This document shows positions 2,497 to 31,240 of a stretch of 64,000 nt of DNA, in pieces (within the stretch, counting starts at the first letter, position 1; every line of letters begins with the position of its first letter). This DNA is from Escherichia coli (GTDB lineage Bacteria > Pseudomonadota > Gammaproteobacteria > Enterobacterales > Enterobacteriaceae), in NCBI RefSeq assembly GCF_003019035.1, contig NZ_CP027447.1; one strand, 5' to 3'. The notes beneath the pieces were generated by a model. The model was given only the letters and a program-made list of their open reading frames with translations, was not told where the DNA came from and did no database searches. Both the position numbers and the translations under genes were made by a program.

Positions 2497-2676
2497 GTCT
2501 GGCCTCGATAAAATAATGATGGTGATGTTATCAATACTATCGAAAACAGCCCGAAGCAACGGATTCCTCGATGAAATTATTGCGTGCTGCAGAGGGGATG
2601 TGACGGCTGCAAACAAAACCATTCCTGCGAGCCTGCTACTATTGATGGATTCATGCCAAAAGCACAGGAGAGCATT

Positions 2677-8019: not shown

Positions 8020-8100
8020 TAGATATGGCGAGGGTGAAAACGGAGAGACTTGCCTGACTTTTATCACGCCGTATCCGGCACCTTCGTCAGTAATTTGAAT

Positions 8101-8127
8101 TTGCCCGGCACGTAGCCGGGCAATTTT
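8101..8127 (+). terminator. Intrinsic terminator after yncE
   Basis: 9-bp stem ttgcccggc / gccgggcaa with 5-nt loop followed by a T-run. Confidence 0.45.
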
Positions 8128-8131
8128 GCAA

Positions 8132-9631
8132 TTAACTCGCCGTTTCAGGCTTAAACACAATTTCCTGTTGTTCTTCATCTTCCTCGACGACTGGCGCAGT
8201 GCTGTGAATTTCAGCAACGCGTTTGCGCACACCAAACCAGCCTATAACCAGCAGAATACCGATAATCGGCAGCGCCGCGATAGTATAAGTCCCGTTCGGG
8301 TAATCGAACGCCATCAGCACCAGAACACTCAGTAAAAACAGTAATGTCAGCCAGGAAGTGAAGGGCGCGCCAGGCAGTTTAAAACTGACATCCGCTGCTT
8401 TGCCTTCTTTAATCGCTTTACGCAGGCGCATCTGGCACACGATGATAAACGCCCATGAAGCGATGATTCCCAGCGACGCGAAGTTCAACACAATCTCAAA
8501 TACGCGCGACGGCACCAGATAGTTGAGGAATACGCCGACGACATACACAACCAGTGTCGCCAGAATCCCGGCATACGGCACATGCTGACGACTCATTTTC
8601 GCCATAAAACTCGGTGCGGAACCGCCCATCGCCATTGAGCGCAGAATGCGTCCGGTGCAGTACAGACCTGAATTCAGGCTGGAGAGGGCAGCGGTCAGCA
8701 CCACAATGTTCATAATGCTGCCGATATATGGCACACCCAGTTTAGAGAAAAACGTCACGAACGGACTTTGCCCCGCCTGATACGCGCTCCACGGCAATAA
8801 CATAACCAGCAACACCACGGAGCCGACGTAAAACAGGCCAATACGCCAAATCACACTGTTAATGGCTTTAGGCACCATGGTCTGCGGATCTTTACATTCT
8901 CCGGCAGCTGTCCCCACCATTTCAATGGAGGCAAAAGCAAACACTACGCCCTGAATCAACACCAGCGCAGGCAGCAAACCGTGGGGGAAGAAGCCGCCAT
9001 TATCGGTGATTAAATGAAAGCCAGTGGTGTTGCCATCCAGCGGCTGACCACTACCGAGGAACACTGTACCCACGACCAAAAAGGTCACAATGGCGAGCAC
9101 TTTAATAAGCGCAAACCAGAACTCCATCTCCGCAAACCATTTCACACCGATCATATTCATGGTGCCAACGATGGTAAGTGCAGCGAGCGCAAAGACCCAC
9201 TGCGGCACGCCGCCAAACGCACCCCAGTAATGCATATACAGAGCGACGGCGGTAATATCAACAATCCCCGTCATCGCCCAGTTGATGAAGTACATCCAGC
9301 CAGCAACATAAGCGGCTTTCTCACCCAAAAACTCACGGGCATAAGAGACAAAACTGCCACTGGAAGGGCGGTGTAGCACCAGCTCACCCAATGCACGCAG
9401 AATAAAAAACGAAAACAAGCCACAAATTAAATAAACCAGTGCCAGTGCTGGACCCGCCATTTGCAGTCGGGCTCCTGCACCTAAAAACAAGCCGGTGCCA
9501 ATCGCGCCGCCAATGGCGATCATCTGTACCTGGCGATTGCCCATCGCTTTGTGATACCCCTCTTCGTGGGCATTAAGCCAGCGGCGTTTCGCGGCGTGTT
9601 GATCTGAAGTGTCGGTGTCGTGTTTACTCAT
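8132..9631 (-). CDS. ansP: L-asparagine permease (APC family), 499 aa
   Basis: Internal ATG (reverse complement of 9629..9631) with GGGAGAG ribosome-binding site; track ORF 8132..9682. Confidence 0.85.
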   Translation of the reverse strand: MSKHDTDTSDQHAAKRRWLNAHEEGYHKAMGNRQVQMIAIGGAIGTGLFLGAGARLQMAGPALALVYLICGLFSFFILRALGELVLHRPSSGSFVSYAREFLGEKAAYVAGWMYFINWAMTGIVDITAVALYMHYWGAFGGVPQWVFALAALTIVGTMNMIGVKWFAEMEFWFALIKVLAIVTFLVVGTVFLGSGQPLDGNTTGFHLITDNGGFFPHGLLPALVLIQGVVFAFASIEMVGTAAGECKDPQTMVPKAINSVIWRIGLFYVGSVVLLVMLLPWSAYQAGQSPFVTFFSKLGVPYIGSIMNIVVLTAALSSLNSGLYCTGRILRSMAMGGSAPSFMAKMSRQHVPYAGILATLVVYVVGVFLNYLVPSRVFEIVLNFASLGIIASWAFIIVCQMRLRKAIKEGKAADVSFKLPGAPFTSWLTLLFLLSVLVLMAFDYPNGTYTIAALPIIGILLVIGWFGVRKRVAEIHSTAPVVEEDEEQQEIVFKPETAS

Positions 9632-9897
9632 TGCTCTCCCTGATTGCTTTAATGAAAAAGTCATATAAGTTGCCATGAACAATGTTTATTCATCCTGGCG
9701 ATGATAGTTATCACCATTATTCTTTATGGGTATAAAACTATCGGCGCAGCATCCTACCCGTTATCGATAAACGATGCAAAACATCCCCTTACAATCCTGA
9801 AGGGGAATAATACAACTGACGAAAAAATGACAAATCCTTTTGCTGGTTAACCTGTGTACTGTCCTACACTTAATCTTTAAAAGATTGTGAGGGGCAT

Positions 9898-10515
9898 ATG
9901 ATTAAGGTGTATGGCGTACCCGGATGGGGCTCTACAATCAGTGAGCTGATGCTAACACTGGCTGATATTCCTTATCAGTTCTTTGATGTCAGTGGTTTTG
10001 ACCACGAGGGAACTTCACGCGAGTTATTGAAAACCCTGAACCCGTTGTGTCAGATTCCGACACTGGCGCTGGAAAATGACGAGATTATGACGGAGACAGC
10101 GGCGATTGCATTGATGGTTCTCGATCGTCGCCCGGACCTTGCGCCACCGGTTGGGCGCGCCGAACGTCAGCAGTTTCAACGGCTATTGGTCTGGCTGGTT
10201 GCTAATGTCTATCCAACATTCACTTTCGCCGATTACCCTGAGCGTTGGGCTCCTGACGCACCTGAACAGTTAAAGAAGAATGTTATTGAATATCGAAAAT
10301 CGCTTTATATCTGGTTGAATTCGCAGCTCACTGCTGAACCTTATGCGTTTGGTGAGCAACTAACGCTGGTGGACTGTTATCTTTGCACTATGCGCACATG
10401 GGGGCCTGGGCATGAATGGTTTCAGGATAATGCCACGAATATCAGTGCGATTGCTGATGCTGTATGTCAGTTACCGAAATTACAAGAAGTATTAAAAAGG
10501 AATGAAATTATTTGA
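9898..10515 (+). CDS. yncG: Glutathione S-transferase-like protein, 205 aa
   Basis: Track ORF; GST fold; synteny. Confidence 0.8.
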   Translation: MIKVYGVPGWGSTISELMLTLADIPYQFFDVSGFDHEGTSRELLKTLNPLCQIPTLALENDEIMTETAAIALMVLDRRPDLAPPVGRAERQQFQRLLVWLVANVYPTFTFADYPERWAPDAPEQLKKNVIEYRKSLYIWLNSQLTAEPYAFGEQLTLVDCYLCTMRTWGPGHEWFQDNATNISAIADAVCQLPKLQEVLKRNEII

Positions 10516-10590
10516 GTGGGATACCAGAAGATTATGTTATTTATTATTCAGTAACTTTATCCACAATGATGGGCGTAATTAATTAAATTC

Positions 10591-10803
10591 ATGTTATGTT
10601 TTTTAATTTATATCACTCTCCCTTTCATTCAGCTTGTCTATTTCATTTCCTCTGAAAAGAAACTAACTATTCACATTGTGCAGATGTTTCAGTTGTTATC
10701 ACAGGTATTCTATAATCTCAAAATGTTTTTAATGATGGATATGCTCGGAGTTGGAGATGCAATTAATATTAATACAAATAAAAATATCCGGCAGGTATGC
10801 TAA
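10591..10803 (+). CDS. yncH: Small hypothetical protein, 70 aa
   Basis: Track ORF in an AT-rich region; position matches K-12 yncH. Confidence 0.45.
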   Translation: MLCFLIYITLPFIQLVYFISSEKKLTIHIVQMFQLLSQVFYNLKMFLMMDMLGVGDAININTNKNIRQVC

Positions 10804-11623
10804 AAGGATAAATGGCGTTCTCTGTATTTATTCGCAATTATCTGTAGGACAAATATGGAGAGCTTGATGAGTCAGAGCTAAAACAGCAATTGATTAATAA
10901 ACATGTTGATTTATTCAAGAAAATGGATGTATTTTAAATATTGATTCTTAATATAACCTAATCAATAGATTATCACGTGAGAGCTGCACATTATTGGAGG
11001 GGCAGGGGAAAACACCATTTTGGGAACAATGCATCAGGTACTCTTACCACTGAAGCAAGATCATCCGGGCACCAGGTGGTGGTGCAGTGCTTTGGAAATG
11101 GTCCCCTCGGGGGAGTTGTCATTATTTTCTATGCTATTTGCTTATTATATTCATCAGGTGAATTTAATAAATTCCTAATTTGAAATATCCACTATTAAGC
11201 TAGTGTTTAACGACGTTAAGATGGCAATGTGCAGATCATGTTATCAGGGTGGGGCGGTAGCGTATATTCCTTATACAAACCATCATTCATTTCAATGATT
11301 GTTATTGAATTATTTATTGTTGTGAATAAAAAGACATTATGAATATTGGTTTGACTTTGCATATCAGGTTTTTTATTACTCGCTGTAATGTACGAGCCTG
11401 TCGTGAATAACGTCGAGAACCCATCCGTTGCGTTTGTGATTATTTTGTTGACTAAACAGACACCCGTTTCTCTGAAGTAAAATCCCAGACTAAATCATCA
11501 CATAACCATGACATTTTTCTGATATTCCCCGGTAACGCCAGATGTCGACTCGCTTATCTCATCCGCCCGACATGTTGTACATGCAATATGTGCGGATTAT
11601 TATTCATTTTCACGGAGGTTGCT

Positions 11624-13732
11624 ATGTCAACCGGATTACGTTTCACGCTGGAAGTGGACGGCCTGCCACCGGACGCGTTTGCGGTGGTTTCCTTTCATCT
11701 CACCCAGTCACTCTCTTCACTTTTTTCCCTTGACCTTTCTCTGGTCAGTCAGCAGTTTCTCTCCCTTGAATTTGCGCAGGTGCTGGACAAAATGGCCTAC
11801 CTGACGGTATGGCAGGGCGATGACGTACAGCGCCGGGTGAAAGGCGTGGTGACCTGGTTTGAACTCGGGGAGAACGACAAAAACCAGATGCTGTACAGCA
11901 TAAAGGTGCGCCCGCCGCTGTGGCGGGCAGGACTGCGTCAGAACTTCCGTATCTTCCAGAACGAGGACATCAGAAGCATCCTCGGCACCATACTGCAGGA
12001 AAATGACGTCACGGAGTGGAGTCCGCTGTTCAGCGAGCCGCATCCTTCCCGTGAGTTTTGTGTCCAGTACGGCGAAACCGATTACGATTTCCTGTGCCGG
12101 ATGGCGGCGGAGGAAGGCATCTTCTTTTATGAGGAGCACGCGCAAAAAAGTACCGACCAGAGCCTGGTCCTGTGCGACACCGTGCGTTATCTGCCGGAGT
12201 CCTTTGAGATCCCCTGGAATCCGAACACCCGTACCGAGGTGAGCACCCTATGCATCAGCCAGTTCCTCTACAGCGCACAAATCCGCCCATCTTCCGTGGT
12301 GACCAAAGACTACACCTTTAAACGACCCGGCTGGGCAGGGCGTTTTGATCAGGAAGGCCAGCACCAGGATTACCAGCGCACACAGTATGAAGTGTATGAC
12401 TACCCCGGACGTTTCAAGGGTGCCCACGGGCAGAACTTTGCCTGCTGGCAGATGGATGGCTGGCGAAACAACGCAGAAGTGGCGCGCGGAACAAGCCGTT
12501 CGCCGGAGATATGGCCGGGACGGCGAATTGCGCTGACGGGGCATCCGCAGGCGAACCTGAACCGGGAATGGCAGGTGGTGGCAAGTGAACTGCACGGCGA
12601 GCAGCCGCAGGCGGTGCCGGGACGCAGTGGTTCAGGTACCACGCTGAATAACCACTTTGCGGTAATACCGGCAGACAGAACATGGCGGCCACAGCCGTTG
12701 CTGAAACCGCTGGTGGACGGCCCGCAGAGCGCCGTCGTGACGGGACCGGCAGGAGAAGAAATCTTCTGTGATGAACATGGCCGCGTGCGGGTGAAATTTA
12801 ACTGGGACCGTTATAACCCGTCAAACCAGGACAGTTCATGCTGGATCCGTGTGGCACAGGCGTGGGCAGGCACCGGGTTTGGTAACCTGGCGATACCGCG
12901 TGTGGGTCAGGAGGTCATTGTGGACTTCCTCAACGGCGATCCGGACCAGCCGATTATTATGGGGCGCACCTACCACCAGGAAAACCGCACCCCCGGCAGC
13001 CTGCCGGGAACAAAGACGCAAATGACCATTCGTTCAAAAACCTATAAGGGCAGCGGGTTTAATGAACTGAAGTTTGACGATGCGACAGGGAAAGAACAGG
13101 TCTACATCCACGCGCAGAAGAACATGAACACCGAGGTGCTGAATAACCGCACCACGGATGTGATAAACAACCATGCTGAGACCATCGGCAACAATCAGGT
13201 GATTGCGGTTACCAACAATCAGATACAGACGGTGGGCGTTAACCAGATAGAGACGGTGGGCAGTAACCAGATCATTAAAGTGGGCTCTGTTCAGGTGGAA
13301 ACGATTGGACTTGTTCGTGCGCTGACTGTGGGCGTGGCGTATCAGACGACGGTAGGTGGCATTATGAACACCTCGGTGGCCCTGATGCAGTCCTCGCAGA
13401 TCGGTTTGCATAAATCGTTGATGGTCGGGCTGGGTTATGACGTCAAAGTCGGAAATAACGTTACCTTCACCGTTGGTAAAACGAAAAAGGATGATACCGG
13501 GCAGACCGCGATTTACTCCGCCGGTGAGCATCTGGAACTCTGCTGTGGTAAGGCAAGGCTGGTGCTGACTAAGGACGGACAAATTTTTCTCAACGGCACA
13601 AAAATTCATTTGCAGGGTAAGGAGCAGGTTAATGGTGACTCACTGTTGATTAACTGGAACTGTGCAGCCTCGAAATCCCCACCGAAGACCCCTGATGAAA
13701 AGCAGGATACGCCGGATATGAGAGAGTACTGA
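11624..13732 (+). CDS. vgrG: Type VI secretion spike protein VgrG, 702 aa
   Basis: ATG at 11624 with GGAGG ribosome-binding site; gp27/gp5-like VgrG sequence (…VDFLNGDPDQPIIMGRTYHQEN…); followed 66 nt later by an rhs start. Confidence 0.85.
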   Translation: MSTGLRFTLEVDGLPPDAFAVVSFHLTQSLSSLFSLDLSLVSQQFLSLEFAQVLDKMAYLTVWQGDDVQRRVKGVVTWFELGENDKNQMLYSIKVRPPLWRAGLRQNFRIFQNEDIRSILGTILQENDVTEWSPLFSEPHPSREFCVQYGETDYDFLCRMAAEEGIFFYEEHAQKSTDQSLVLCDTVRYLPESFEIPWNPNTRTEVSTLCISQFLYSAQIRPSSVVTKDYTFKRPGWAGRFDQEGQHQDYQRTQYEVYDYPGRFKGAHGQNFACWQMDGWRNNAEVARGTSRSPEIWPGRRIALTGHPQANLNREWQVVASELHGEQPQAVPGRSGSGTTLNNHFAVIPADRTWRPQPLLKPLVDGPQSAVVTGPAGEEIFCDEHGRVRVKFNWDRYNPSNQDSSCWIRVAQAWAGTGFGNLAIPRVGQEVIVDFLNGDPDQPIIMGRTYHQENRTPGSLPGTKTQMTIRSKTYKGSGFNELKFDDATGKEQVYIHAQKNMNTEVLNNRTTDVINNHAETIGNNQVIAVTNNQIQTVGVNQIETVGSNQIIKVGSVQVETIGLVRALTVGVAYQTTVGGIMNTSVALMQSSQIGLHKSLMVGLGYDVKVGNNVTFTVGKTKKDDTGQTAIYSAGEHLELCCGKARLVLTKDGQIFLNGTKIHLQGKEQVNGDSLLINWNCAASKSPPKTPDEKQDTPDMREY

Positions 13733-13798
13733 TCCCGTACCTGTTCAGTATTCAGTAACAAACAAGCATTAAAAATAAACAGAAGAAGGAATTGAATC

Positions 13799-13815
13799 AT
13801 GAGCGGAAAACCAGC
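13799..13815 (+). pseudogene. rhs start stub (ATG plus 14 nt) cut off by the H-repeat element
   Basis: atgagcggaaaaccagc matches the first 17 nt of the full-length rhs at 21550 (atgagcggaaaacccgc) at 15 of 17 positions; sits at the usual distance after the vgrG stop. Confidence 0.45.
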
Positions 13816-15106
13816 CAGGGAAAGATCATCAGAAGTACACTTTTTGTACTAAACAATTCGCATTTTATGTTTAAAAATTGAGATATTCCTCATTACCTGA
13901 AGCTGTTTTTTATTGCTTATACATGATCAAATACTCCTTACATAATTAAGGAGAACAAAATGGAACTTAAAAAATTGATGGAGCATATTTCTATTATCCC
14001 CGATTACAGACAAGCCTGGAAAGTGGAACATAAATTATCGGACATTCTACTGTTGACTATTTGTGCCGTTATTTCTGGTGCAGAAGGCTGGGAAGATATA
14101 GAGGATTTTGGGGAAACACATCTCGATTTTTTGAAGCAATATGGTGATTTTGAAAATGGTATTCCTGTTCACGATACCATTGCCAGAGTTGTATCCTGTA
14201 TCAGTCCTGCAAAATTTCACGAGTGCTTTATTAACTGGATGCGTGACTGCCATTCTTCAGATGATAAAGGCGTCATTGCAATTGATGGAAAAACGCTCCG
14301 GCACTCTTATGACAAGAGTCGCCGCAGGGGAGCGATTCATGTCATTAGTGCGTTCTCAACAATGCACAGTCTGGTCATCGGACAGATCAAGACGGATGAG
14401 AAATCCAATGAGATTACAGCTATCCCAGAACTTCTTAACATGCTGGATATTAAAGGAAAAATCATCACAACTGATGCGATGGGTTGCCAGAAAGATATTG
14501 CAGAGAAGATACAAAAACAGGGAGGTGATTATTTATTCGCTGTAAAAGGAAATCAGGGGCGGCTTAATAAAGCCTTTGAGGAAAAATTTCCACTGAAAGA
14601 ATTAAATAATCCAGAGCATGACAGTTACGCAATGAGTGAAAAGAGTCACGGCAGAGAAGAAATCCGTCTTCACATTGTTTGCGATGTCCCTGATGAACTT
14701 ATTGATTTCACGTTTGAATGGAAAGGTCTGAAGAAATTATGCGTGGCAGTCTCCTTTCGGTCAATAATAGCAGAACAAAAGAAAGAGCCAGAAATGACGG
14801 TCAGATATTATATCAGTTCTGCTGATTTAACCGCAGAGAAGTTCGCCACAGCAATCCGAAACCACTGGCACGTGGAGAATAAGCTGCACTGGCGTCTGGA
14901 CGTGGTAATGAATGAAGACGACTGCAAAATAAGAAGAGGAAACGCCGCAGAATTATTTTCAGGGATACGGCACATCGCTATTAATATTTTAACGAATGAT
15001 AAGGTATTCAAGGCAGGGTTAAGACGTAAGATGCGAAAAGCTGCCATGGACAGAAACTATCTCGCGTCAGTCCTTGCGGGGAGCGGGCTTTCGTAATCTT
15101 TCCCTG
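13816..15106 (+). mobile_element. H-repeat (ISAs1-family) insertion sequence, copy 1, about 1291 bp
   Basis: Terminal inverted repeats cagggaaagat… (13816) and …atctttccctg (ending 15106); encloses the transposase gene. Confidence 0.75.
13960..15096 (+). CDS. H-repeat-associated (ISAs1-family) transposase, 378 aa
   Basis: Track ORF; about 99% identical to the ORFs at 18738..19874 and 26492..27628. Confidence 0.85.
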
Positions 15107-16889
15107 GCTGCTGGAGTTCACGCGCGACCGCCTGCACCGGGAGACGGTGCGCAGCTTCGGCAGCATGGCAGGCAGTAATGCCGCATACGAACTGACCAGC
15201 ACATACACCCCCGCAGGCCAGTTACAGAGCCAGCACCTGAACAGCCTGGTATATGACCGTGACTACGGGTGGAGTGACAACGGCGACCTGGTGCGCATCA
15301 GCGGCCCGCGACAGACGCGGGAATACGGCTACAGCGCCACGGGCAGGCTGGAGAGTGTGCGCACCCTCGCACCGGACCTGGACATCCGCATCCCGTATGC
15401 CACGGACCCGGCGGGCAACCGGCTGCCGGACCCGGAGCTGCACCCGGACAGTACACTCACAGTGTGGCCGGATAACCGAATCACCGAAGACGCGCACTAC
15501 CTGTACCGTTACGATGAATACGGCAGGCTGACGGAGAAGACGGACCGCATCCCGGCGGGTGTGATACGGACGGACGACGAGCGGACCCACCACTACCGCT
15601 ACGACAGCCAGCACCGCCTGGTGTTCCACACGCGGATACAGCATGGCGAGCCACTGGTCGAGAGCCGCTACCTCTACGACCCGCTGGGACGGCGAATGGC
15701 AAAACGGGTCTGGCGGCGGGAGCGTGACCTGACGGGGTGGATGTCGCTGTCGCGTAAACCGGAGGAGACATGGTACGGGTGGGACGGCGACAGGCTGACG
15801 ACGGTGCAGACTGACACCACACGTATCCAGACGGTCTACCAGCCGGGGAGCTTCACGCCGCTCATCCGTATCGAGACAGAGAACGGCGAACGGGAGAAAA
15901 TGCAACGCCGCAGCCTGGCGGAGAAGTTACAGTCGGAAGGGAGTGAGGACGGTCACGGTGTGGTGTTCCCGGCTGAGCTGGTGAGGATGCTGGACAGGCT
16001 GGAGGAAGAAATCCGGGCAGACCGCGTGAGCAGTGAAAGCCGGGCGTGGCTTGCGCAGTGCGGGCTGACGGTGGAGCAACTGGCCAGACAGGTGGAGCCG
16101 GAATACACACCGGCGCGAAAAGTTCATTTTTACCACTGCGACCACCGGGGCCTGCCGCTGGCGCTCATCAGCGAAGACGGCAATACGGTGTGGAGCGGGG
16201 AGTATGATGAATGGGGCAACCAGCTTAATGAGGAGAACCCGCATCATGTGTATCAGCCATACCGCCTGCCGGGGCAGCAGTATGATGAGGAGTCGGGGCT
16301 GTACTATAACCGCAACCGGTACTATGATCCGTTGCAGGGGAGGTATATTACCCAGGATCCGATTGGGCCGGTGGGGGGGTGGAATCCCTATAGTTATGTG
16401 CTTATTAATCCAGCCCAGTTTATTGACCCAACAGGTTTAACTCAAGAGGACAATTGGACCTATGGTGAGGTAGGTAATAGCTGTGTTACGAGTCAACGCG
16501 ATTTTACTCCCCCGCCCGGACTTGCGGATATGAAAGCCAGCATTGGCGCTGCCTGCTCAAGAAACAATGCTTCCAGAAACTGCCACCCCGTAGATGGTAG
16601 TAATGCTTCTGCACCATCGGATAAAGCCGCATGGGAAAATATTCAAAATGCGACAAATGGTAAAGATTTATCTGGTGGTGGAAATATGTTTTGTGTAGGA
16701 AATGAGGACTGTGCGGTTGTTCATAGCTGTCGTGAAATAGTTAATGCTCGACACCCGGCAGGACGAGTGCGTGAACGTGTAACTCCGTTAACAACGTCAG
16801 GAACAGCAACGCTCAATGGAACAACAGTTTACTTTTATAATGATCCCCGGAATGGCAATTGTCCTGCTCACGAATATATTCCTCAATAA
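15107..16889 (+). pseudogene. N-terminally truncated rhs: 3' core (YD repeats) plus a distinct Cys-rich C-terminal tip
   Basis: Near-identical at nucleotide level to 23994..25260 of the full-length rhs; track ORF 15147..16889; tip after the DPxGL-type core boundary (…IDPTGL) is unrelated to the full-length tip. Confidence 0.75.
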
Positions 16890-16939
16890 AGAAAAGTGGC
16901 CAGACTAAGCTCTAGCCACATTTTTTGGAGATCCTTTTC

Positions 16940-17563
16940 ATGAAAAGGTTTTTTATAACATGTTGCGTTATGACATTATTTTTATTTGTTAAATGTAAAG
17001 CAGCGTGTGTAACTTCCTTATATGAGGTTCAGCAATCGCTCTTTACATACATTTATTTGATTAGACAAGACCCTGTTCATTTTGATTCATATATTAAGAA
17101 TGTGCATAACGAATTAAAAATATTCCATGATATTGATAAAGCAATGAATATAGCCTCAGATATGGTCAAAATTATTGATATAAAGACCCGTTTATCATTT
17201 AATAATGATTTATATATATTACAAGGGGAACGACAGTATGCAATAGTTAAGAGTGAAGGGGAAAGTAGTCAATTAAAATCATCAGCATTTATCATATCTA
17301 ATTACCCACTATTTAAAAACAAAGTTCTGTTAATTTTATCCGCTACTAGTCCCGTTCAGTTGGTTATATTGTCTTTTGATCAATGTCTTAATGTGGAGGT
17401 GTTATTTGATTCAATGTCTCCAGTTTTCGCTAAGTATAGAGAAGATATTAGTGCAACATTACCATTATGGAAGGTTATTTTGACAAAAAATGATATAGAA
17501 TTATATGAGTACCATAGAACAAATCCATACTCACTTAACAAATTATTGAGCATGTCAAAATAA
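16940..17563 (+). CDS. Putative cognate immunity protein with signal peptide, about 207 aa
   Basis: ATG at 16940 with GGAG ribosome-binding site; AT-rich; directly downstream of the rhs tip; N-terminal hydrophobic signal-like segment. Confidence 0.55.
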   Translation: MKRFFITCCVMTLFLFVKCKAACVTSLYEVQQSLFTYIYLIRQDPVHFDSYIKNVHNELKIFHDIDKAMNIASDMVKIIDIKTRLSFNNDLYILQGERQYAIVKSEGESSQLKSSAFIISNYPLFKNKVLLILSATSPVQLVILSFDQCLNVEVLFDSMSPVFAKYREDISATLPLWKVILTKNDIELYEYHRTNPYSLNKLLSMSK

Positions 17564-17743
17564 CGGTCAAGTATTCAACGTTGTAATATTATTCCTTTTG
17601 CTGAGTGTCTCGAACGGCTAAAGTTGACGTAAAATGCCACGTTTTGTGGGCAAACCGAATCGGTTAAAAAGCATGGTCCGGGAAAAGCTTAACATCAGCG
17701 CTATCGGTGCCAAATGTGCAGCAGGCCTTTCCAGCCTGATTAC

Positions 17744-18004
17744 CAGGGCAGGGCGGGATCGTGAATATTGTGATGCATATCACATGAACTCCTGGTTTTA
17801 ACTTATTATTTCGGTTAAAATTTAACCACTGAAATCATTAGGATTCGAGCAAAGGGACGGCATATGGATATTCAAAATTTACTGGATTATATTTCTATAA
17901 TTCCTGATTATCGTCAGCAAGGGAAAATAAGGCATAAATTGTCAGATATTTTATTGCTCACTATATGTGCTATTATTGCCGGTTCTGATGAATGGGAGGA
18001 TATT
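17744..18004 (+). mobile_element. Remnant A of an ISAs1-family element (left end plus 5' transposase), interrupted by remnant B
   Basis: IR-like end cagggcagggcgggatcgtg at 17744; transposase N-terminus [21 protein letters not shown]… from 17864. Confidence 0.5.
17864..18004 (+). pseudogene. ISAs1-family transposase 5' fragment (about 46 codons)
   Basis: Homologous to the N-terminus of the intact H-repeat transposases; ends where the next element's end begins. Confidence 0.5.
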
Positions 18005-18593
18005 CAGGGCAAGATCATGAAAATCGTGATGTAAATCACAATTTTCAACCTGGCTTTAACTCCTTCAGGAGATTAAAATTTAACCTATGGAATAACTAAA
18101 AAGATAAAAAAGGACGCCAGATGAGTATTCAAAGTTTGCTTGATTATATTTCAGTGTTCCCTGATATACGACAACAAGGAAAGGTTAAACATAAATTATC
18201 TGATATTTTGTTTCTCACCGTATGTGCAGTAATTGCAGGTGCCGATGAGTGGCAGGAAATTGAAGATTTTGGACATGAAAGACTGGAATGGCTAAAGAAA
18301 TATGGTGATTTTGATAATGGCATTCCGGTCGATGACACCATTGCACGCGTTGTGAGTAACATTGACAGTTTGGCCTTTGAAAAGATGTTTATTGAATGGA
18401 TGCAGGAGTGCCATGAAATCACTGATGGTGAAATTATAGCAATAGATGGAAAGACCATAAGAGGCTCCTTTGATAAGGGAAAAAGGAAAGGAGCAATCCA
18501 TATGGTGAGTGCATTCTCGACTGAAAATGGTGTTGTACTGGGGCAGGTGAAAACGGAAGCCAAAAGTAATGAGATTACAGCCATTCCAGAGTT
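18005..18593 (+). mobile_element. Remnant B of an ISAs1-family element, interrupted by intact copy 2
   Basis: IR-like end cagggcaagatcatgaaaatcg at 18005; transposase 5' ORF from 18121; homology stops at 18593 where copy 2 IR-L begins. Confidence 0.55.
18121..18593 (+). pseudogene. ISAs1-family transposase N-terminal fragment (about 158 codons, divergent paralog)
   Basis: Track ORF 18121..18630 reads through into the next element's end; roughly 60-70% identical by eye to the intact H-repeat transposase. Confidence 0.6.
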
Positions 18594-19884
18594 CAGGGAA
18601 AGATCATCAGAAGTACACTTTTTGTACTAAACAATTCGCATTTTATGTTTAAAAATTGAGATATTCCTCATTACCTGAAGCTGTTTTTTATTGCTTATAC
18701 ATGATCAAATACTCCTTACATAATTAAGGAGAACAAAATGGAACTTAAAAAATTGATGGAACATATTTCTATTATCCCCGATTACAGACAAGCCTGGAAA
18801 GTGGAACATAAATTATCGGATATTCTACTGTTGACTATTTGTGCCGTTATTTCGGGTGCAGAAGGCTGGGAAGATATAGAGGATTTTGGGGAAACACATC
18901 TCGATTTTTTGAAGCAATATGGTGATTTTGATAATGGTATTCCTGTTCACGATACCATTGCCAGAGTTGTATCCTGTATCAGTCCTGCAAAATTTCACGA
19001 GTGCTTTATTAACTGGATGCGTGACTGCCATTCTTCAGATGATAAAGACGTCATCGCAATTGATGGAAAAACACTCCGGCATTCTTATGACAAGAGTCGC
19101 CGCAGGGGAGCGATTCATGTCATTAGTGCGTTCTCAACAATGCACAGTCTGGTCATCGGACAGATCAGGACGGATGAGAAATCCAATGAGATCACAGCTA
19201 TCCCTGAACTTCTTAACATGCTGGATATTAAAGGAAAAATTATCACAACTGATGCAATGGGTTGCCAGAAAGATATTGCAGAGAAGATACAAAAACAGGG
19301 CGGTGATTATTTATTCGCTGTAAAAGGAAATCAGGGTCGGCTAAATAAAGCCTTTGAGGAAAAATTCCCACTGAAAGAATTAAATAATCCAGAACATGAC
19401 AGTTACGCAATGAGTGAAAAGAGTCACGGCAGAGAAGAAATCCGTCTTCACATTGTTTGCGATGTCCCTGATGAACTTATTGATTTCACGTTTGAATGGA
19501 AAGGTCTGAAGAAATTATGCGTGGCAGTCTCCTTTCGGTCAATAATAGCAGAACAAAAGAAAGAGCCAGAAATGACGGTCAGATATTATATCAGTTCTGC
19601 TGATTTAACCGCAGAGAAGTTCGCCACAGCAATCCGAAACCACTGGCACGTGGAGAATAAGCTGCACTGGCGTCTGGACGTGGTAATGAATGAAGACGAC
19701 TGCAAAATAAGAAGAGGAAACGCCGCAGAATTATTTTCAGGGATACGGCACATCGCTATTAATATTTTGACGAATGATAAGGTATTCAAGGCAGGGTTAA
19801 GACGTAAGATGCGAAAAGCTGCCATGGACAGAAACTATCTCGCGTCAGTCCTTGCGGGGAGCGGGCTTTCGTAATCTTGCCCTG
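18594..19884 (+). mobile_element. H-repeat (ISAs1-family) insertion sequence, copy 2, about 1291 bp
   Basis: IR-L cagggaaagatcatcag at 18594; IR-R …atcttgccctg ending 19884; same length as copy 1. Confidence 0.75.
18738..19874 (+). CDS. H-repeat-associated (ISAs1-family) transposase, 378 aa
   Basis: Track ORF; near-identical to copies 1 and 3. Confidence 0.85.
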
Positions 19885-19896
19885 CTTTGTAATGGT

Positions 19897-20079
19897 ATGG
19901 CAGGAGGATATGAATTTGCAGTAAGTAAATTTGGTCAGTCGGCCTATGATGCCGCACAGGAAAAAGCATTAAATAACTATATGGAATTTGAAATGTTAGA
20001 TTTATTACAAAGCATGGGAGAGAATGTCAATCCAGATGAATATAAGCAGGCGCATGATAGAGTTGTTAATCCAAATTGA
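19897..20079 (+). CDS. Small hypothetical protein, about 60 aa, possibly a toxin-tip remnant
   Basis: ATG at 19897 just after copy 2 IR-R; track ORF 19852..20079 starts inside the insertion sequence; ends 15 nt before the next gene's ATG. Confidence 0.3.
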   Translation: MAGGYEFAVSKFGQSAYDAAQEKALNNYMEFEMLDLLQSMGENVNPDEYKQAHDRVVNPN

Positions 20080-20093
20080 ATGCAGAGGGGAGT

Positions 20094-20657
20094 ATGTTAT
20101 TAAAACTGATAATGTTATTTTCAATATTTTTTATCCCGTTTTTGGCAGGTTGCAGTATGTTTGATGATGTTTTTGAGAAAAACTACTCATTGAGTTCTGT
20201 CGCCAGTTTTCCAGATGACGTTGATGAATTAAAAGAAATATGGTTTTTTTGTGAAAGATGTTTAAGTGATGAGCAGTGCGAAAATCATGACATTAAACAA
20301 TGTAGAGATGTAACTATTCCCGGTAGAGATGAAGCATTAAGTAAAGCTGTAGGCAGAGCCAATGTCGAAGCTGTTTACTTTCTTGTTGATGTGGCAAAAA
20401 CTGATGTCAATGGTATTACAGGTAAATATAAGGAAACACCATTAATTATTGCTGCATATTATGGAACTCAAGCACATCAGGATATAGCTGAATTTTTGCT
20501 ATTGCATGGGGCAGATATTAATAAAACTTACCCAGCCATTGGGCGAAATCCTCTAGGTGTCGCCAGATGGAAGCATAATGTCGATTTCGTTAATTTTCTA
20601 CTGAAGCATGGTGCTGAACCAGCAGTACATATGGGGTCGATTGAGAATAAAGAGTGA
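20094..20657 (+). CDS. Ankyrin-repeat lipoprotein, about 187 aa, immunity-like
   Basis: ATG at 20094 with GAGGGGA ribosome-binding site; lipobox FLAGC; ankyrin repeats (…TPLIIAAYYG…LLLHGADIN…). Confidence 0.6.
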   Translation: MLLKLIMLFSIFFIPFLAGCSMFDDVFEKNYSLSSVASFPDDVDELKEIWFFCERCLSDEQCENHDIKQCRDVTIPGRDEALSKAVGRANVEAVYFLVDVAKTDVNGITGKYKETPLIIAAYYGTQAHQDIAEFLLLHGADINKTYPAIGRNPLGVARWKHNVDFVNFLLKHGAEPAVHMGSIENKE

Positions 20658-21100
20658 GATTTAACAAAAATGCAATTCATGCTCTCGCCTTGGGTGACGG
20701 TATTGATACTGCTTTTAAGTGTTCAGGAAAAATGGAAAGTGGTAAACCCTTAAAATCTTCGGGCAAATGGGATTACTCTGTTGGTGGGACAAATGGTGCC
20801 TTTCTTTATCTTAAAGACTATTCAAATATTTTGACGGCTGGCCACACAGGAAATCTGGCAGTTACTTTTCTTGGAAGTTACAATGCTCAATATTCAATAA
20901 ACGGAAACTCTCTGGATGTAGTTGTAACAAATTCTTCAACGATACAATCAGCGACACATCCCCCAATCCTGGAGTATACAAAATGGTGGCAGGATAATAT
21001 TGGTAATCCTTTGGATAGAAAATTTCAAAAAGGTCCCACGTCCCCAAAAACACAAACCATAAATTTACACTTTGATTTGTCATGTGCGTGCAAAAAATGA
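20654..21100 (+). CDS. Hypothetical protein, 148 aa, no signal peptide
   Basis: Track ORF with GTG start overlapping the upstream stop (GTGA) and stop overlapping the downstream ATG; no recognisable domain. Confidence 0.35.
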   Translation: MRFNKNAIHALALGDGIDTAFKCSGKMESGKPLKSSGKWDYSVGGTNGAFLYLKDYSNILTAGHTGNLAVTFLGSYNAQYSINGNSLDVVVTNSSTIQSATHPPILEYTKWWQDNIGNPLDRKFQKGPTSPKTQTINLHFDLSCACKK

Positions 21101-21480
21101 AAATTTTATTTATGTTATTATTAATTATCTTGAGTGGATGTGATGGCGAAAATGATGCCAAATTTGTTGGGCAATGGCTTGCTGATATTGATGGTGATAT
21201 AAAATCAGAATTGATCGTGAAGGCAAATGGAATTTTTTATTTCAAGAATATGCCTATGGAGACAGTTTGTCGCGAGGATAAAACATATAAGGCTAATTTT
21301 TTCGGGGATTGGACTATTAATATTGACAATAGGATTGATATTTCAATGGATAATGTTAATTCTGAACGGTGTAATATTCCATCCTCGTATTTAATTAATG
21401 GGTTTTATGATGGTGGATATTTTTTATGTCAGAAAGGATTGTCTTTTTTCCAGACGGACCTGATGAGCCAGGTAATATGA
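21097..21480 (+). CDS. Small lipoprotein, about 127 aa, immunity-like
   Basis: ATG at 21097; lipobox ILSGC; AT-rich. Confidence 0.45.
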   Translation: MKILFMLLLIILSGCDGENDAKFVGQWLADIDGDIKSELIVKANGIFYFKNMPMETVCREDKTYKANFFGDWTINIDNRIDISMDNVNSERCNIPSSYLINGFYDGGYFLCQKGLSFFQTDLMSQVI

Positions 21481-21549
21481 TCATTTATATTAAACAATGA
21501 AAGTATTGATCGTGAGCAGATTAAATATATAAGAAATTAAGGAGATACC

Positions 21550-24500
21550 ATGAGCGGAAAACCCGCGGCACGCCAGGGTGATGCCACGCTGAAAGGCGGT
21601 CCGATAGTCCAGGGGTCAGCGGGGGTGCTGATAGGCGCGCCCACCGGCGTGGCGTGCTCGGTGTGTCCGGGCGGGATGACTTCGGGCAACCCGGTAAATC
21701 CGCTGCTGGGGGCGAAGGTGCTGCCCGGCGAGACGGACCTTGCCCTGCCCGGCCCGCTGCCGTTCATTCTCTCCCGCACCTACAGCAGCTACCGGACGAG
21801 GACGCCTGCCCCGGTGGGCGTTTTCGGCCCCGGCTGGAAAGCGCCTTCGGATATCCGCTTACAGCTACGTGATGACGCACTGATACTCAACGACAACGGC
21901 GGGCGGAGCATTCACTTTGAGCCGCTGCTGCCGGGGGAGGCGGTGTACAGCCGCAGCGAGTCAATGTGGCTGGTGCGCGGTGGTAAGGCAGCGCAGCCGG
22001 ACGGCCACACGCTGGCGCGACTGTGGGGGGCGCTGCCGCCGGATATCCGGTTAAGCCCGCATCTTTACCTGGCGACCAACAGCGCACAGGGGCCGTGGTG
22101 GATACTCGGCTGGTCAGAGCGGGTGCCGGGTACTGAGGACGTACTGCCAGCGCCGCTGCCGCCGTACCGGGTGCTTACCGGGCTGGCGGACCGCTTCGGG
22201 CAGACGCTGACGTACCGGCGTGAGGCCGCCGGTGACCTGGCCGGGGAAATCACCGGCGTGACGGACGGTGCCGGGCGGAAGTTCCGTCTGGTGCTGACCA
22301 CGCAGGCGCAGCGTGCGGAAGAGGCCCGCACCTCTTCGCTATCTTCTTCTGACCGTTCCCGCCCTCTCTCAGCCTCAGCGTTCCCCGACACACTGCCCGG
22401 TACGGAATACGGCCCCGACAGGGGCATCCGTCTTTCGGCGGTGTGGCTGATGCACGACCCGGCATACCCGGAAAGCCTGCCCGGTGCGCCACTGGCGCGG
22501 TACACGTATACGGAAGCCGGTGAACTGCTGGCGGTATATGACCGCAGCAATACGCAGGTGCGCGCTTTCACGTATGACGCGCAGCACCCGGGCCGGATGG
22601 TGGCGCACCGTTACGCGGGAAGGCCGGAGATGCGCTACCGCTACGACGATACGGGGCGGGTGGTGGAGCAACTGAACCCGGCAGGGTTAAGCTACCGCTA
22701 TCTTTATGAGCAGGACCGCATCACCATCACGGACAGCCTGAACCGGCGAGAGGTGCTGCATACAGAAGGCGGGGCCGGGCTGAAGCGGGTGGTGAAAAAA
22801 GAACTGGCGGACGGCAGCGTCACGCACAGCGGGTATGACGCGGCAGGAAGGCTCACGGCACAGACGGACGCGGCGGGACGGCAGACAGAGTACGGTCTGA
22901 ATGTGGTGTCAGGCGATATCACGGACATCACCACGCCGGACGGGCGGGAGACGAAATTTTACTATAACGACGGGAACCAGGTGACGGCAGTGGTGTCCCC
23001 GGACGGGCTGGAGAGCCGCCGGGCGTATGATGAGCGGGACAGGCTGGTAACGGAGACATCGCGCAGTGGGGACGTCATCCGGTATGCTTATGATAATCCG
23101 CACAGTGAATTACCGGCCACGACAACAGATGCGACGGGCAGCACCCGGCAGATGACCTGGAGCCGCTACGGGCAGTTGCTGGCGTTCACCGACTGCTCGG
23201 GCTACCAGACCCGCTATGAATACGACCGCTTCGGCCAGATGACGGCGGTCCACCGCGAGGAAGGCATCAGCCTTTACCGCCGCTATGACAACCGTGGCCG
23301 GTTAACCTCGGTGAAAGACGCACAGGCCCGTGAAACGCAGTATGAGTACAACGCCGCAGGCGACCTGACTGCCGTTATCACCCCGGATGGCAACCGGAGT
23401 GAGACACAGTACGATGGGTGGGGAAAGGCCATCAGCACCACGCAGGGCGGGCTGACGCGCAGTATGGAGTACGATGCTGCCGGACGTATCACCACGCTGA
23501 CTAACGAGAACGGCAGCCACAGCGACTTTAGTTACGATGCGCTGGACCGCCTGATACAGCAGGGCGGCTTTGACGGGCGGACGCAACGTTATCATTATGA
23601 CCTGACCGGAAAACTCACGCAGAGTGAAGATGAGGGGCTTGTCATCCTCTGGTACTACGATGAATCGGACCGTATTACTCACCGCACGGTAAACGGTGAA
23701 CCGGCAGAACAGTGGCGGTATGACGGCCACGGCTGGCTGAGAGAAATCAGCCACCTGAGCGAAGGCCACCGTGTTGCCGTCCACTATGGCTATGATAATA
23801 AAGGCCGCCTGACCAGTGAGCGCCAGACGGTGCATCACCCGGAGACGGGAGAGCTGCTCTGGCAGCATGAGACCGGACATGCGTACAACGAACAGGGGCT
23901 GGCAAACCGCGTCACGCCGGACAGTCTGCCGCCGGTGGAGTGGCTGACCTATGGTAGCGGTTATCTGGCAGGCATGAAGCTGGGCGGGACGCCGCTGCTG
24001 GAGTTCACGCGCGACCGCCTGCACCGTGAGACGGTGCGCAGCTTCGGCAGCATGGCAGGCAGTAATGCCGCATACGAACTGACCAGCACATACACCCCTG
24101 CAGGCCAGTTACAGAGTCAGCACCTGAACAGCCTGGTGTATGACCGTGACTACGGGTGGAATGACAACGGAGACCTGGTGCGCATCAGCGGCCCGCGACA
24201 GACGCGGGAATACGGCTACAGCGCCACGGGCAGGCTGGAGAGTGTGCGCACCCTCGCACCGGACCTGGACATCCGCATCCCGTATGCCACGGACCCGGCG
24301 GGCAACCGGCTGCCGGACCCGGAGCTGCACCCGGACAGTACACTCACAGTGTGGCCGGATAACCGCATCGCGGAGGATGCGCACTATGTCTACCGCCACG
24401 ATGAATACGGCAGGCTGACGGAGAAGACGGACCGCATCCCGGCGGGTGTGATACGGACGGACGACGAGCGGACCCACCACTACCACTACGACAGCCAGCA

Positions 24501-25803
24501 CCGCCTGGTGTTCTACACGCGGATACAGCATGGCGAGCCACTGGTCGAGAGCCGCTACGTCTACGACCCGCAGGGACGGCGAATGGCGAAACGGGTATGG
24601 CGGCGGGAGCGTGACCTGACGGGGTGGATGTCGCTGTCGCGTAAACCGGAGGTGACGTGGTACGGCTGGGACGGCGACCACCTGACGACGGTGCAGACCG
24701 ACAGCACACGTATCCAGACGGTATACGAGCCGGGAAGCTTCACACCGCTCATCCGCATCGAAACAGACAACGGCGAGCGGGAGAAAACGCAGCGGCGGAG
24801 CCTGGCGGAGAAGCTCCAGCAGGAAGGGAGCGAGGACGGACACGGTGTGGTGTTCCCGGCTGAACTGGTGAGGATGCTGGACAGGCTGGAGGAAGAAATC
24901 CGGGCAGACCGCGTGAGCGGTGAAAGCCGGACGTGGCTTGCACAGTGCGGGCTGGCGGTGGAGCAACTGGAAAAACAGGTGGAGCCGGAATACACGCCGG
25001 AACGCACACTGCATCTTTACCACTGCGACCACCGGGGACTGCCGCTGGCGCTTATCAGCGAAGACGGCAATACGGTGTGGAGCGCGGAGTATGATGAATG
25101 GGGAAACCTGCTTAATGAGGAGAACCCGCATCATGTGTATCAGTCATACCGTCTGCCGGGGCAGCAGCATGATGAGGAGTCGGGGCTGTATTATAACCGG
25201 AACCGGTACTATGACCCGCTACAGGGGAGGTATATCACCCAGGATCCAATCGGGCTAAGAGGTGAATGGAATCTGTATAAATATCCATTAAACCCTGTTC
25301 GGTTTATAGATTCTTTGGGTTTAAAATTCCATGTTAACGGTGATCCAAGTGATTTTAATCAGGCTGTTGAGTATTTAAAACAAGATTCACGAATGAAAGA
25401 AGCTATAGATTTTTTATCAAGCTCTGAAGAAACCATAAAGATAGAGTATATTGATGAAACCGACGTTAGATTTGACCCGGATAAAATGACTATATATTGG
25501 AATGGTAAGGCGGCTTTATTTTGTTCAACTGATTTAAAATCGAAATCACAATCACCTGCATTAGGTTTGGGGCATGAGTTTGCTCATGCGCACTTATATC
25601 TTATTGATAAGGATGGTTATATGGGGCTTGTGAGACGTGCGGATGAACAATATAAAAATAAAGAAGAGGCGAGAGTTATCACTTTAATTGAACAGCATGC
25701 GGCGAAAACTTTAGGTGAGTGTACCAGAACAGCATATAATGGAGTGTATTATCGTGTGAATACACCAACGCAGACGGCAACAATAAATGGCACGCCAGAA
25801 TAG
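21550..25803 (+). CDS. Full-length Rhs polymorphic toxin, 1417 aa: PAAR-like N-terminus, YD-repeat shell, HExxH-containing C-terminal tip
   Basis: Track ORF with AAGGAG ribosome-binding site; N-terminus [11 protein letters not shown]…; repeated YD motifs; core boundary …YITQDPIGL…IDSLGL; tip contains [10 protein letters not shown]. Confidence 0.9.
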
Positions 25804-25815
25804 TGAGATTTTTTT

Positions 25816-26265
25816 ATGATGAAATATTTGATGGTTTTATTGTCTCTATTTTCTGCTTCGGTATTGGGGATGGGGCGAGTGAATGAATTGTGTGGAATAG
25901 ATAGTGTGAAAACGATAGAAATAATTAATCTTCCAGCATATGTTACCACCTTAACCCCGCTTAGCAAGGAAGGTCTCAAGAGAATATACAAACATAAAGT
26001 GGTGGTGAATGGAGTTAGCGATTTTTATGCTGGTGAGATAATTGATTTATTGCAAATGAAGTATTTCAGGAAGGAGGAGAATAACGATATAAGATGGGGG
26101 GTTGACATTGTTTCGAATAAAAATAATAAATGTGAAATTTATTTTGATGGTTTTGGTGAATGTGGAAGTGTGAATGGCATTAACGTATGTTTTGAAAAAA
26201 ATGAAATGATAGATTGGATTAAAAAAGAAATCCCTTTTCTGTCGCAAGAAATAGGTGGTCTTTAA
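25816..26265 (+). CDS. Putative cognate immunity protein with signal peptide, 149 aa
   Basis: Track ORF 13 nt after the rhs stop; AT-rich; N-terminus MMKYLMVLLSLFSASVLG. Confidence 0.55.
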   Translation: MMKYLMVLLSLFSASVLGMGRVNELCGIDSVKTIEIINLPAYVTTLTPLSKEGLKRIYKHKVVVNGVSDFYAGEIIDLLQMKYFRKEENNDIRWGVDIVSNKNNKCEIYFDGFGECGSVNGINVCFEKNEMIDWIKKEIPFLSQEIGGL

Positions 26266-26322: not shown

Positions 26323-27638
26323 CAGGGAAAGATCACGTAACGCTGCTCAGGGAAAGATCACGTAACGCTGCTTTTTTGTACTAAACAATCCGCATTTTAT
26401 GTTTAAAAATTGAGATATTCCTCATTACCTAAAGCTGTTTTTTATTGCTTATACATGATCAAATACTCCTTACATAATTAAGGAGAACAAAATGGAACTT
26501 AAAAAATTGATGGAACATATTTCTATTATCCCCGATTACAGACAAGCCTGGAAAGTGGAACATAAATTATCGGATATTCTACTGTTGACTATTTGTGCCG
26601 TTATTTCGGGTGCAGAAGGCTGGGAAGATATAGAGGATTTTGGGGAAACACATCTCGATTTTTTGAAGCAATATGGTGATTTTGATAATGGTATTCCTGT
26701 TCACGATACCATTGCCAGAGTTGTATCCTGTATCAGTCCTGCAAAATTTCACGAGTGCTTTATTAACTGGATGCGTGACTGCCATTCTTCAGATGATAAA
26801 GACGTCATCGCAATTGATGGAAAAACACTCCGGCATTCTTATGACAAGAGTCGCCGCAGGGGAGCGATTCATGTCATTAGTGCGTTCTCAACAATGCACA
26901 GTCTGGTCATCGGACAGATCAGGACGGATGAGAAATCCAATGAGATCACAGCTATCCCTGAACTTCTTAACATGCTGGATATTAAAGGAAAAATTATCAC
27001 AACTGATGCAATGGGTTGCCAGAAAGATATTGCAGAGAAGATACAAAAACAGGGCGGTGATTATTTATTCGCTGTAAAAGGAAACCAGGGGCGGCTAAAT
27101 AAAGCCTTCGAGGAAAAATTTCCGCTGAAAGAATTAAATAATCCAGAGCATGACAGTTACGCAATGAGTGAAAAGAGTCACGGCAGAGAAGAAATCCGTC
27201 TTCACATTTTTTGCGATGTCCCTGATGAACTTATTGATTTCACGTTTGAATGGAAAGGTCTGAAGAAATTATGCGTGGCAGTCTCCTTTCGGTCAATAAT
27301 AGCAGAACAAAAGAAAGAGCCAGAAATGACGGTCAGATATTATATCAGTTCTGCTGATTTAACCGCAGAGAAGTTCGCCACAGCAATCCGAAACCACTGG
27401 CACGTGGAGAATAAGCTGCACTGGCGTCTGGACGTGGTAATGAATGAAGACGACTGCAAAATAAGAAGAGGAAATGCAGCAGAATTATTTTCAGGGATAC
27501 GGCACATCGCTATTAATATTTTGACGAATGATAAGGTATTCAAGGCAGGGTTAAGACGTAAGATGCGAAAAGCAGCCATGGACAGAAACTATCTGGCGTC
27601 AGTCCTTGCGGGGAGCGGGCTTTCGTAATCTTTCCCTG
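26323..27638 (+). mobile_element. H-repeat (ISAs1-family) insertion sequence, copy 3, with a 25-bp tandem duplication at its left end
   Basis: cagggaaagatcacgtaacgctgct occurs twice in tandem (26323..26372); IR-R …atctttccctg ends at 27638. Confidence 0.7.
26492..27628 (+). CDS. H-repeat-associated (ISAs1-family) transposase, 378 aa
   Basis: Track ORF; near-identical to copies 1 and 2. Confidence 0.85.
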
Positions 27639-29880: not shown

Positions 29881-29985
<105 letters not shown>

Positions 29986-30014
29986 GCCAGACACAGCGCC
30001 GTCAGGCGCTGTTG

Positions 30015-31240
<1,226 letters not shown>

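Follow-up and report, generated by a model that had tools for sequence, protein, structure and literature searches.

The window analysed here, a stretch of 64,000 nucleotides from an Escherichia coli chromosome (RefSeq assembly GCF_003019035.1, contig NZ_CP027447.1), spans the yncH–vgrG–rhs–ydcC–yddH locus, which is the RhsE site of strain K-12. Rhs tips are contact-dependent toxins, and the tip that a strain deploys decides which of its neighbours it can kill. At this locus part of an rhs core occurs twice on the same strand: once inside a full-length rhs gene (copy B) and once in an orphan fragment upstream of it (copy A). Each copy runs into its own tip (tipB and tipA, respectively), followed by a putative immunity gene (immB and immA). 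The remains of a third module – a stub of another tip, tipC, with an ankyrin-repeat gene – lie between the two, and three copies of the insertion sequence (IS) ISEc1 are found among these modules (Table 1). The questions taken up below are how this arrangement came about and what recombination between the two core copies would do to it.

Comparison of the window with itself by BLAST returned positions 15107–16368 (copy A) and 23994–25255 (copy B) as an ungapped direct repeat of 1262 bp with an E value of 0, which rules out chance as its source. The first-pass annotation of this DNA had pointed to two same-orientation, 'near-identical' copies of an rhs core, and both BLAST and a base-by-base count bear out the repeat itself. 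Its starts were placed correctly, but its 3′ ends (16380 and 25260) overshoot by about 5–12 nt, and 'near-identical' is generous for 80 mismatches (93.66% identity). Even so, 93.7% over 1262 bp lies well above the 85% or so below which recombination had been thought unsupported. The copies are separated by 8887 bp from start to start, with 7625 bp in between. Mismatches are patchily distributed, with 6 within the first 300 nt and then 6–12 per 100 nt; the longest perfect tract measures 194 bp (15285–15478). Third codon positions hold 49 of the 80, and the encoded cores agree in 392 of 420 residues (93.3%). The patchiness gives no specific signal of gene conversion between the copies, as it is equally seen in all inter-genome core comparisons.

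Both copies carry the same core-end motif (of the PxxxxDPxGL type), and it is there that the repeat terminates: the DPIG codons occupy 16356–16367 and 25243–25254, and the DNA repeat stops one base later. Beyond this point nucleotide identity drops to 33%, and tipA and tipB have in common only a post-core motif of about 25 residues, being otherwise unrelated. The cores have a GC content of 61–68%, against 31–39% for the tips and immunity genes; such a GC-rich core followed by an AT-rich tip and downstream open reading frame (ORF) is the classical Rhs signature. Strain SCU-301, assembled independently, has the same architecture, so the repeat is not an assembly artefact.

Table 1. Features of the vgrG–rhs locus, in window coordinates
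Feature	Position	Strand	Details
vgrG (type VI secretion system, T6SS, spike)	11588–13732	+	714-aa ORF; Pfam Phage_GPD, Gp5_trimer_C, Phage_base_V
Stub of vgrG-adjacent rhs	13799–13815	+	ATG and next 14 nt (ATGAGCGGAAAACCAGC), cut by ISEc1-a
ISEc1 copy a	13816–15106	+	1291 bp; transposase 13960–15096; match to NF033564, ISAs1 transposase
Core repeat copy A	15107–16368	+	3′ third of rhs core; in frame, without stop codon, without start context
tipA, Cys-rich C-terminal domain	16369–16889	+	predicted to be silent here
immA, putative immunity gene for tipA	16970–17563	+	intact 197-aa ORF
Degraded IS material	17605–18593	+	IS1 fragment, then ISAs1-family remnants cut by ISEc1-b
ISEc1 copy b	18594–19884	+	transposase 18738–19874; unrelated flanks
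tipC stub	19885–20079	+	final 64 codons of a third tip; runs collinear with the end of D8 rhs1
Ankyrin-repeat lipoprotein	20094–20657	+	Pfam Ank_2, E = 5e-21; LAGC lipobox
Two small ORFs	20654–21100, 21082–21480	+	upstream of full-length rhs
Full-length Rhs effector	21550–25803	+	1417 aa; prePAAR-like N-terminus, DUF6531, YD-repeat shell, core end, tipB
Core repeat copy B	23994–25255	+	inside full-length rhs
tipB, M91-like zinc metallopeptidase domain (HEFAH)	25256–25803	+
immB, putative immunity gene	25816–26265	+	149 aa; signal-peptide-like N-terminus; related to 'dsORF-h1'
Tandem duplicate of ISEc1-c left end	26323–26347	+	25 nt
ISEc1 copy c	26348–27638	+	transposase 26492–27628; occupies the ydcC position

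Against the NCBIfam model NF041261 (RHS_core, curated cutoff 2000 bits), the full-length gene at 21550–25803 scores 2717 bits end to end, over model positions 1–1261, and the orphan 908 bits over positions 833–1261 only. Both segments are thus rhs core, as the earlier reading had it, with the orphan a fragment of rhs and not a family member in its own right. In Pfam and NCBIfam searches the full-length protein shows 12 RHS_repeat stretches and an RHS/Rhs_assc_core domain, and it is the only predicted deliverable effector of the locus. For tipB itself the Pfam match to Peptidase_M91 falls short of the threshold (E = 0.031). Among its homologues are Hafnia proteins, 45% identical, that are named M91 zinc metallopeptidase, and 15 of the 18 aligned members of its family match PF14891, with an invariant HExxH. 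Although its AlphaFold2 (AF2) model is confident (predicted local distance difference test, pLDDT, 94.9), a Foldseek search of the Protein Data Bank (PDB) gave no significant match (best E = 0.038), with top weak matches that are all zincin metalloproteases. With the fold search this weak, the designation of tipB as probably an M91-like zinc metallopeptidase domain is owed to its sequence family alone. Among 5426 complete genomes, the tipB–immB block occurs in 1084, mostly at about 88% identity, with the downstream gene annotated as 'dsORF-h1'; in EC42405 and 88-3493, too, immB is linked to tipB.

The orphan (15107–16889) precedes the full gene on the same strand. It has the make-up of an orphan rhs-CT/rhsI pair (Poole 2011; Koskiniemi et al. 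2014), that is, a 5′-truncated core fragment with a distinct C-terminal (CT) region and an adjacent small ORF, although published orphans of this type are placed downstream of the full gene. It does not have the make-up of a C-terminal displacement product: it lies upstream and not downstream of the full gene, its core is 93.7% identical, and it starts at an ISEc1 terminus. Copy A begins at the very base that follows ISEc1-a. Beyond this element, directly after vgrG, stand the rhs ribosome-binding site and the ATG with 14 further nt, as in every comparator; this stub (13799–13815) agrees in all 17 nt with the start of rhs in four comparator loci (L002–L005). Given an IS end on its left and the start stub beyond the IS, copy A is a 5′-truncated gene that lost nt 18–2444 where the IS joins it, and no tip that a newcomer displaced downstream. 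The exact joint between ISEc1-a and the core recurs, among 5426 genomes, only in SCU-301. That the repeat begins at the right terminus of ISEc1, and that three copies of this element structure the region, had been overlooked at first pass.

Separated from promoter context, start codon and the N-terminal loading and shell-plug region, tipA is predicted to be silent, while immA may persist as an orphan immunity gene. Searches of Pfam, NCBIfam and PDB sequences returned no match for tipA. Six homologues were found among 5.8 billion proteins, one of them on another Rhs-like core, and an AF2 model built from a five-sequence alignment was unusable (pLDDT 38.8). The tipA–immA block is present in 11 genomes at at least 99% identity, and in YZMc3-1 and 88-3493 tipA is carried on a full-length rhs. 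Each core copy is followed by a different tip and a different neighbouring ORF, as first described; position and conserved linkage suggest that the tips are toxins and the adjacent ORFs immunity proteins.

The third module is more reduced. The tipC stub is without the catalytic HD motif; the intact tip, found in strain D8, is phospholipase A2 (PLA2)-like, with a match to PF09056 that lies below the cutoff (E = 3.8e-5) and a CRNHDICY motif. An ankyrin gene follows rhs1 in D8 as well, and the ankyrin lipoprotein of the window is likely a candidate orphan immunity protein to tipC. The context of tipC stub and ankyrin gene (19885–20657) is found in only 3 of 5426 genomes; the ankyrin gene itself is intact. 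This module was cut by ISEc1-b in the same manner as copy A by ISEc1-a. For the two small ORFs that follow it (20654–21480), Pfam and NCBIfam searches gave no family match; they are conserved upstream of rhs2 in D8. The signal-peptide-like N-terminus of immB and the lipobox of the ankyrin protein hint that the cognate toxins (M91-like and PLA2-like) act in the periplasm.

The three ISEc1 copies – H-repeats of the ISAs1 family – measure 1291 bp each and are 97.4–98.5% identical to one another. Every copy encodes an intact 378-aa transposase (417 bits against NF033564, cutoff 70) and has the shared terminal repeats CAGGGAAAGAT. Target-site duplications are missing around each of the three, and around every pair taken as a composite element, and all three join unrelated flanks; lacking target duplications, these copies are rearrangement joints. 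Simple transposition of a composite transposon, whether ISEc1-a to ISEc1-b or ISEc1-b to ISEc1-c, was rejected for the same want of flanking duplications in any combination. Elsewhere the element does leave such a trace: in EcPF16 and nine other genomes ISEc1 sits inside the rhs core with a clean 10-bp target duplication, GTGGAGTGGC (in EcPF16 at 7900–9210 of comparator locus L005). This insertion contrasts with the statement of a genome paper that mentions the H-repeat (H-rpt), according to which its transposition has not been observed (PMC3032704). The junction of vgrG, rhs stub and ISEc1 is 100% identical in 83 genomes.

As to the individual elements, ISEc1-c has its first 25 nt (CAGGGAAAGATCACGTAACGCTGCT) in tandem duplicate (26323–26372), and its left end diverges from copies a and b past nt 13. 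The degraded IS material before ISEc1-b includes a truncated ISAs1-family transposase at 18121–18593, recognised from the SCU-301 annotation, Pfam, NCBIfam and self-BLAST. The ISEc1 junctions lie at 13815/13816, 15106/15107, 19884/19885 and 26347/26348 in the window, and at 10676/10677 (L002), 12138/12139 (L003), 7909–9201 (L005), 12680/12681 (L009) and 10407/10408 (L010) in the comparator loci. They cluster on rhs genes: left ends of the element are found at rhs positions −19, +17 and +87, and right ends at about nt 2347, 2385 and 2445 of rhs, at a point 157 nt short of the core end, or within tips.

The same modules are found in other combinations in other strains. YZMc3-1 and 88-3493 have the order vgrG–rhs(tipA)–immA–IS1 fragment–ISEc1, followed by an orphan, which in 88-3493 consists of 157 nt of core with tipB–immB and is bounded by ISEc1. 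EC42405 carries tipB on the vgrG-adjacent gene. D8 reads vgrG–rhs1(tipC, PLA2-like)–ankyrin–ORF–rhs2, its rhs2 combining the 5′ end of the ankyrin context with tipA–immA. (VgrG is annotated in all comparators, with its start at 11624.) As tips A and B ride on differing shells across these strains, tips have exchanged places at this locus in nature. An ST648 strain shows 2 mismatches in 6.9 kb against window positions 8200–15106, with 0 of 1291 in ISEc1-a; right of ISEc1 it has a different tip remnant and ORF, and its collapsed locus reads vgrG–stub–ISEc1–tip remnant–ORF–ISAs1–pptA. Derivation of this ST648-type locus from the window by deletion was rejected, since what follows its ISEc1 on the right is missing from the window. 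Between 4700 and 8200 the window and the ST648 strain differ by 77 mismatches, which, set against the 2 to the right, places a recombination boundary near 8200.

Both products of a crossover between the core copies were simulated, with the crossover placed inside the 194-bp perfect tract. Deletion removes 8887 bp, comprising tipA, immA, ISEc1-b, the tipC stub, the ankyrin gene and rhs positions 21550–23993; what is left is an N-terminally truncated ORF of 589 aa with tipB behind ISEc1-a, and no full-length Rhs. The reciprocal 8887-bp tandem duplication, in turn, yields an in-frame chimera of 1408 aa (shell B with tipA) followed by immA, and retains the original 1417-aa gene with all the immunity genes. 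With the orphan upstream of the intact gene, simple deletion therefore destroys the toxin gene and swaps no tip. This overturns the proposal, made at first pass, that recombination would delete the intervening region and exchange the tip on the full-length shell by the classical Rhs tip-displacement mechanism; an orphan that lies upstream and starts at an ISEc1 end, with the rhs start stub beyond the IS, is not of that kind. What does stand is that the repeat could support recombination and could put tipA onto the shell, albeit by duplication or a two-arm exchange and not by deletion. The recombinant junction that had been suggested as a signature (21550–23993 joined to 15107–16889) is that of the tandem duplication, or of an excised circle, and not that of the deletion.

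In mechanistic terms, the repeat would be long and similar enough to serve RecA as a substrate, and unequal exchange between sister chromosomes would give the deletion product, an immune cell without a toxin, together with the reciprocal 8887-bp tandem duplication. tipA could reach the shell only through that duplication, or through a double crossover with the core as its left arm and ISEc1-b/c as its right arm. The ISEc1 copies would be expected to dominate rearrangement, because they are longer than the core repeat and more similar to one another; by the general rules of recombination they should be the preferred substrate. Crossovers between them would cost the locus 4778 bp (the orphan module), 7754 bp (the full rhs module) or 12,532 bp (the two together).

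The reading that we favour, and hold to be probable, is that the repeat represents the 3′ third of a clade-I Rhs core, present twice in an IS-scrambled vgrG–rhs locus between yncH and yddH: copy B belongs to an intact Rhs with an M91-like tip, and copy A is a silent remnant truncated at an ISEc1 joint, so that deletion between them loses the shell and duplication makes the chimera. Several points weigh against it. The intact rhs now sits 7.8 kb downstream of vgrG, behind two IS copies, and a scan for promoters and terminators did not rise above what shuffled sequence gives (32 promoter sites, where 24.9 ± 5.8 were expected). In SCU-301 the full-length rhs appears to be broken by a 971-bp deletion (window 22942–23912, against 14910–14919 of its locus, L001) between two copies of the 10-nt sequence CACGCCGGAC; this gap may be a genuine deletion through microhomology, or else a fault of an assembly rich in indels, and a broken rhs suggests decay over an actively used switch. 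It is from position alone that tipA would be toxic and immA protective. The 6.3% divergence between the copies will be penalised by mismatch repair, and the recombinant molecules are known only from simulation on the assembled sequence. As for the order of events, an IS-adjacent deletion, recombination between IS copies after two insertions, or import of IS-flanked modules may have been at work.

A more functional view would have the upstream orphan maintained as a silent cassette, with reversible duplication, or gene conversion through core and ISEc1 homology, deploying tipA while the immunity genes are kept. The orphan ORF and immA are indeed intact and in frame, the duplication product is a clean chimera, both cassettes have core to their left and ISEc1 to their right, and D8 carries an equivalent fusion of shell and tipA; a single step would moreover suffice here, where Salmonella LT2 needed a duplication to keep its main immunity gene. 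Yet the recombinants are simulated ones, an architecture found in 1 of 5426 genomes (SCU-301) is no conserved design, the main rhs of SCU-301 appears disrupted, and the intactness of tipA may merely reflect a recent truncation. We regard this view as doubtful.

A related and equally tentative proposal assigns the active part to ISEc1. At this locus the orphans seen all begin where an ISEc1 copy has its right end, which suggests that orphans originate by IS-mediated 5′ truncation; judged by these sequences, it is ISEc1 joints, and not C-terminal displacement, that appear to create them. Generalised to clade-I Rhs loci, ISEc1 would both make and move orphan toxin/immunity cassettes: it would insert into rhs, truncate it from the 5′ side, and leave each cassette between two portable homology arms, core at its left and ISEc1 at its right, with an orphan upstream of an intact gene deployable by a single reversible tandem duplication that costs no immunity gene. 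In this general form the idea seems to us unlikely to hold, although, if true, it would explain the long-noted and unexplained association of H-rpt with Rhs. The consistent pattern of ISEc1–rhs junctions is the most interesting residue of the analysis.

The classical alternative, a displaced tip that simple deletion between the repeats would swap onto the full-length shell, can draw on the direct core repeats with different tips and immunity genes, on the Salmonella precedent and on the comparison of 88-3493 with EC42405, where the orphan lies downstream at the same locus and a deletion route is consistent with the two arrangements. In the window, however, the orphan is upstream, simulated deletion removes 21550–23993 and leaves no full-length Rhs, and the orphan's 5′ boundary is an IS end and not the product of an incoming tip's insertion; geometry refutes this alternative unless the assembled order is wrong, and SCU-301 independently shows the same order, which makes it very improbable. 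A recent segmental duplication of the core within this genome, with later divergence or homogenisation by concerted evolution, would fit the shared orientation and locus, the 98% identity of the first 300 nt and the 194-bp perfect tract, but it has next to no standing, given that A and B (93.7%) are no closer to each other than either is to the cores of other genomes (91–96%), that the high conservation of the 5′ stretch recurs in most inter-genome comparisons, and that the tips are unrelated, tipB being 100% identical to the EC42405 tip.

The locus is of value as a corrective, and the general picture of Rhs biology is unchanged by it. Depending on whether the orphan or the full gene comes first, recombination either exchanges the toxin or does away with it; geometry therefore has to be checked before 'tip switching by deletion' is called from annotation. 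At this locus a one-step duplication would activate the silent tipA while retaining three immunity genes.

No T6SS core genes were found within the window. An IS621 element (IS110 family, RNA-guided) lies between nhoA and yddE at 29931–31207, with its ORF at 30035–31015 on the minus strand, and is missing from the ST648 comparator. The Rfam scan of the window gave a selenocysteine insertion sequence (SECIS_3; 84 bits, 46462–46520) as its sole match; the syntenic position in SCU-301 is the selenoprotein gene fdnG, where such an element is expected and ordinary.

The closest experimental parallel is Salmonella Typhimurium LT2, in which rhs-main is STM0291 and rhs-CT-orphan is STM0292, with the orphan downstream; deletion there yields a chimera, a prior duplication is needed to keep rhsI-main, and 522 bp at 95% identity sufficed experimentally for recombination (Koskiniemi et al. 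2014, PMC3967940). LT2 and the window are alike in having a direct repeat of the core in a full gene and a silent fragment, each with its own tip and immunity gene, and in that homologous recombination can build a full-length chimera, with duplication playing a part in the retention of immunity. They differ in that the orphan of the window is upstream, its repeat is longer (1262 bp at 93.7%) and ISEc1-bounded, and deletion destroys the shell while duplication itself makes the chimera.

More broadly, in the account of C-terminal displacement arrays by Jackson et al. (2009, PMC2935791), dissociated tips lie downstream, carry cores that nearly match the one of the gene upstream, and are as a rule missing from E. 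coli clade I loci. With the arrays of that study the window shares a GC-rich core with AT-rich exchangeable tips, direct-repeat core fragments with dissimilar tips in one locus, and the occurrence of the same tips on different genes in different strains. Unlike theirs, its fragment lies upstream, is 6% diverged and was made at an IS joint.

The RhsE and RhsB elements of K-12, with their H-repeats, are said to have been described by Zhao and colleagues in 1993 and by Hill and colleagues in 1994. Like K-12 RhsE, the locus of the window occupies the chromosomal site yncH…ydcC–yddH and has a 1291-bp H-rpt/ISEc1 with a 378-aa ORF beside rhs core fragments; it differs from the K-12 elements in its three H-repeats, its intact vgrG, its one intact rhs and its two truncated toxin modules. 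D8, 88-3493 and EC42405 share the modules of the window (tipA–immA–IS1 fragment, tipB–immB and tipC–ankyrin) as well as ISEc1-bounded orphans. What differs is the order of modules: A or C sits on the vgrG-adjacent gene, B is an orphan lying downstream in 88-3493 but part of the main gene in EC42405, and in D8 the shell of the ankyrin context carries tipA. The family is well known, and the window is a rare, IS-scrambled arrangement of it.

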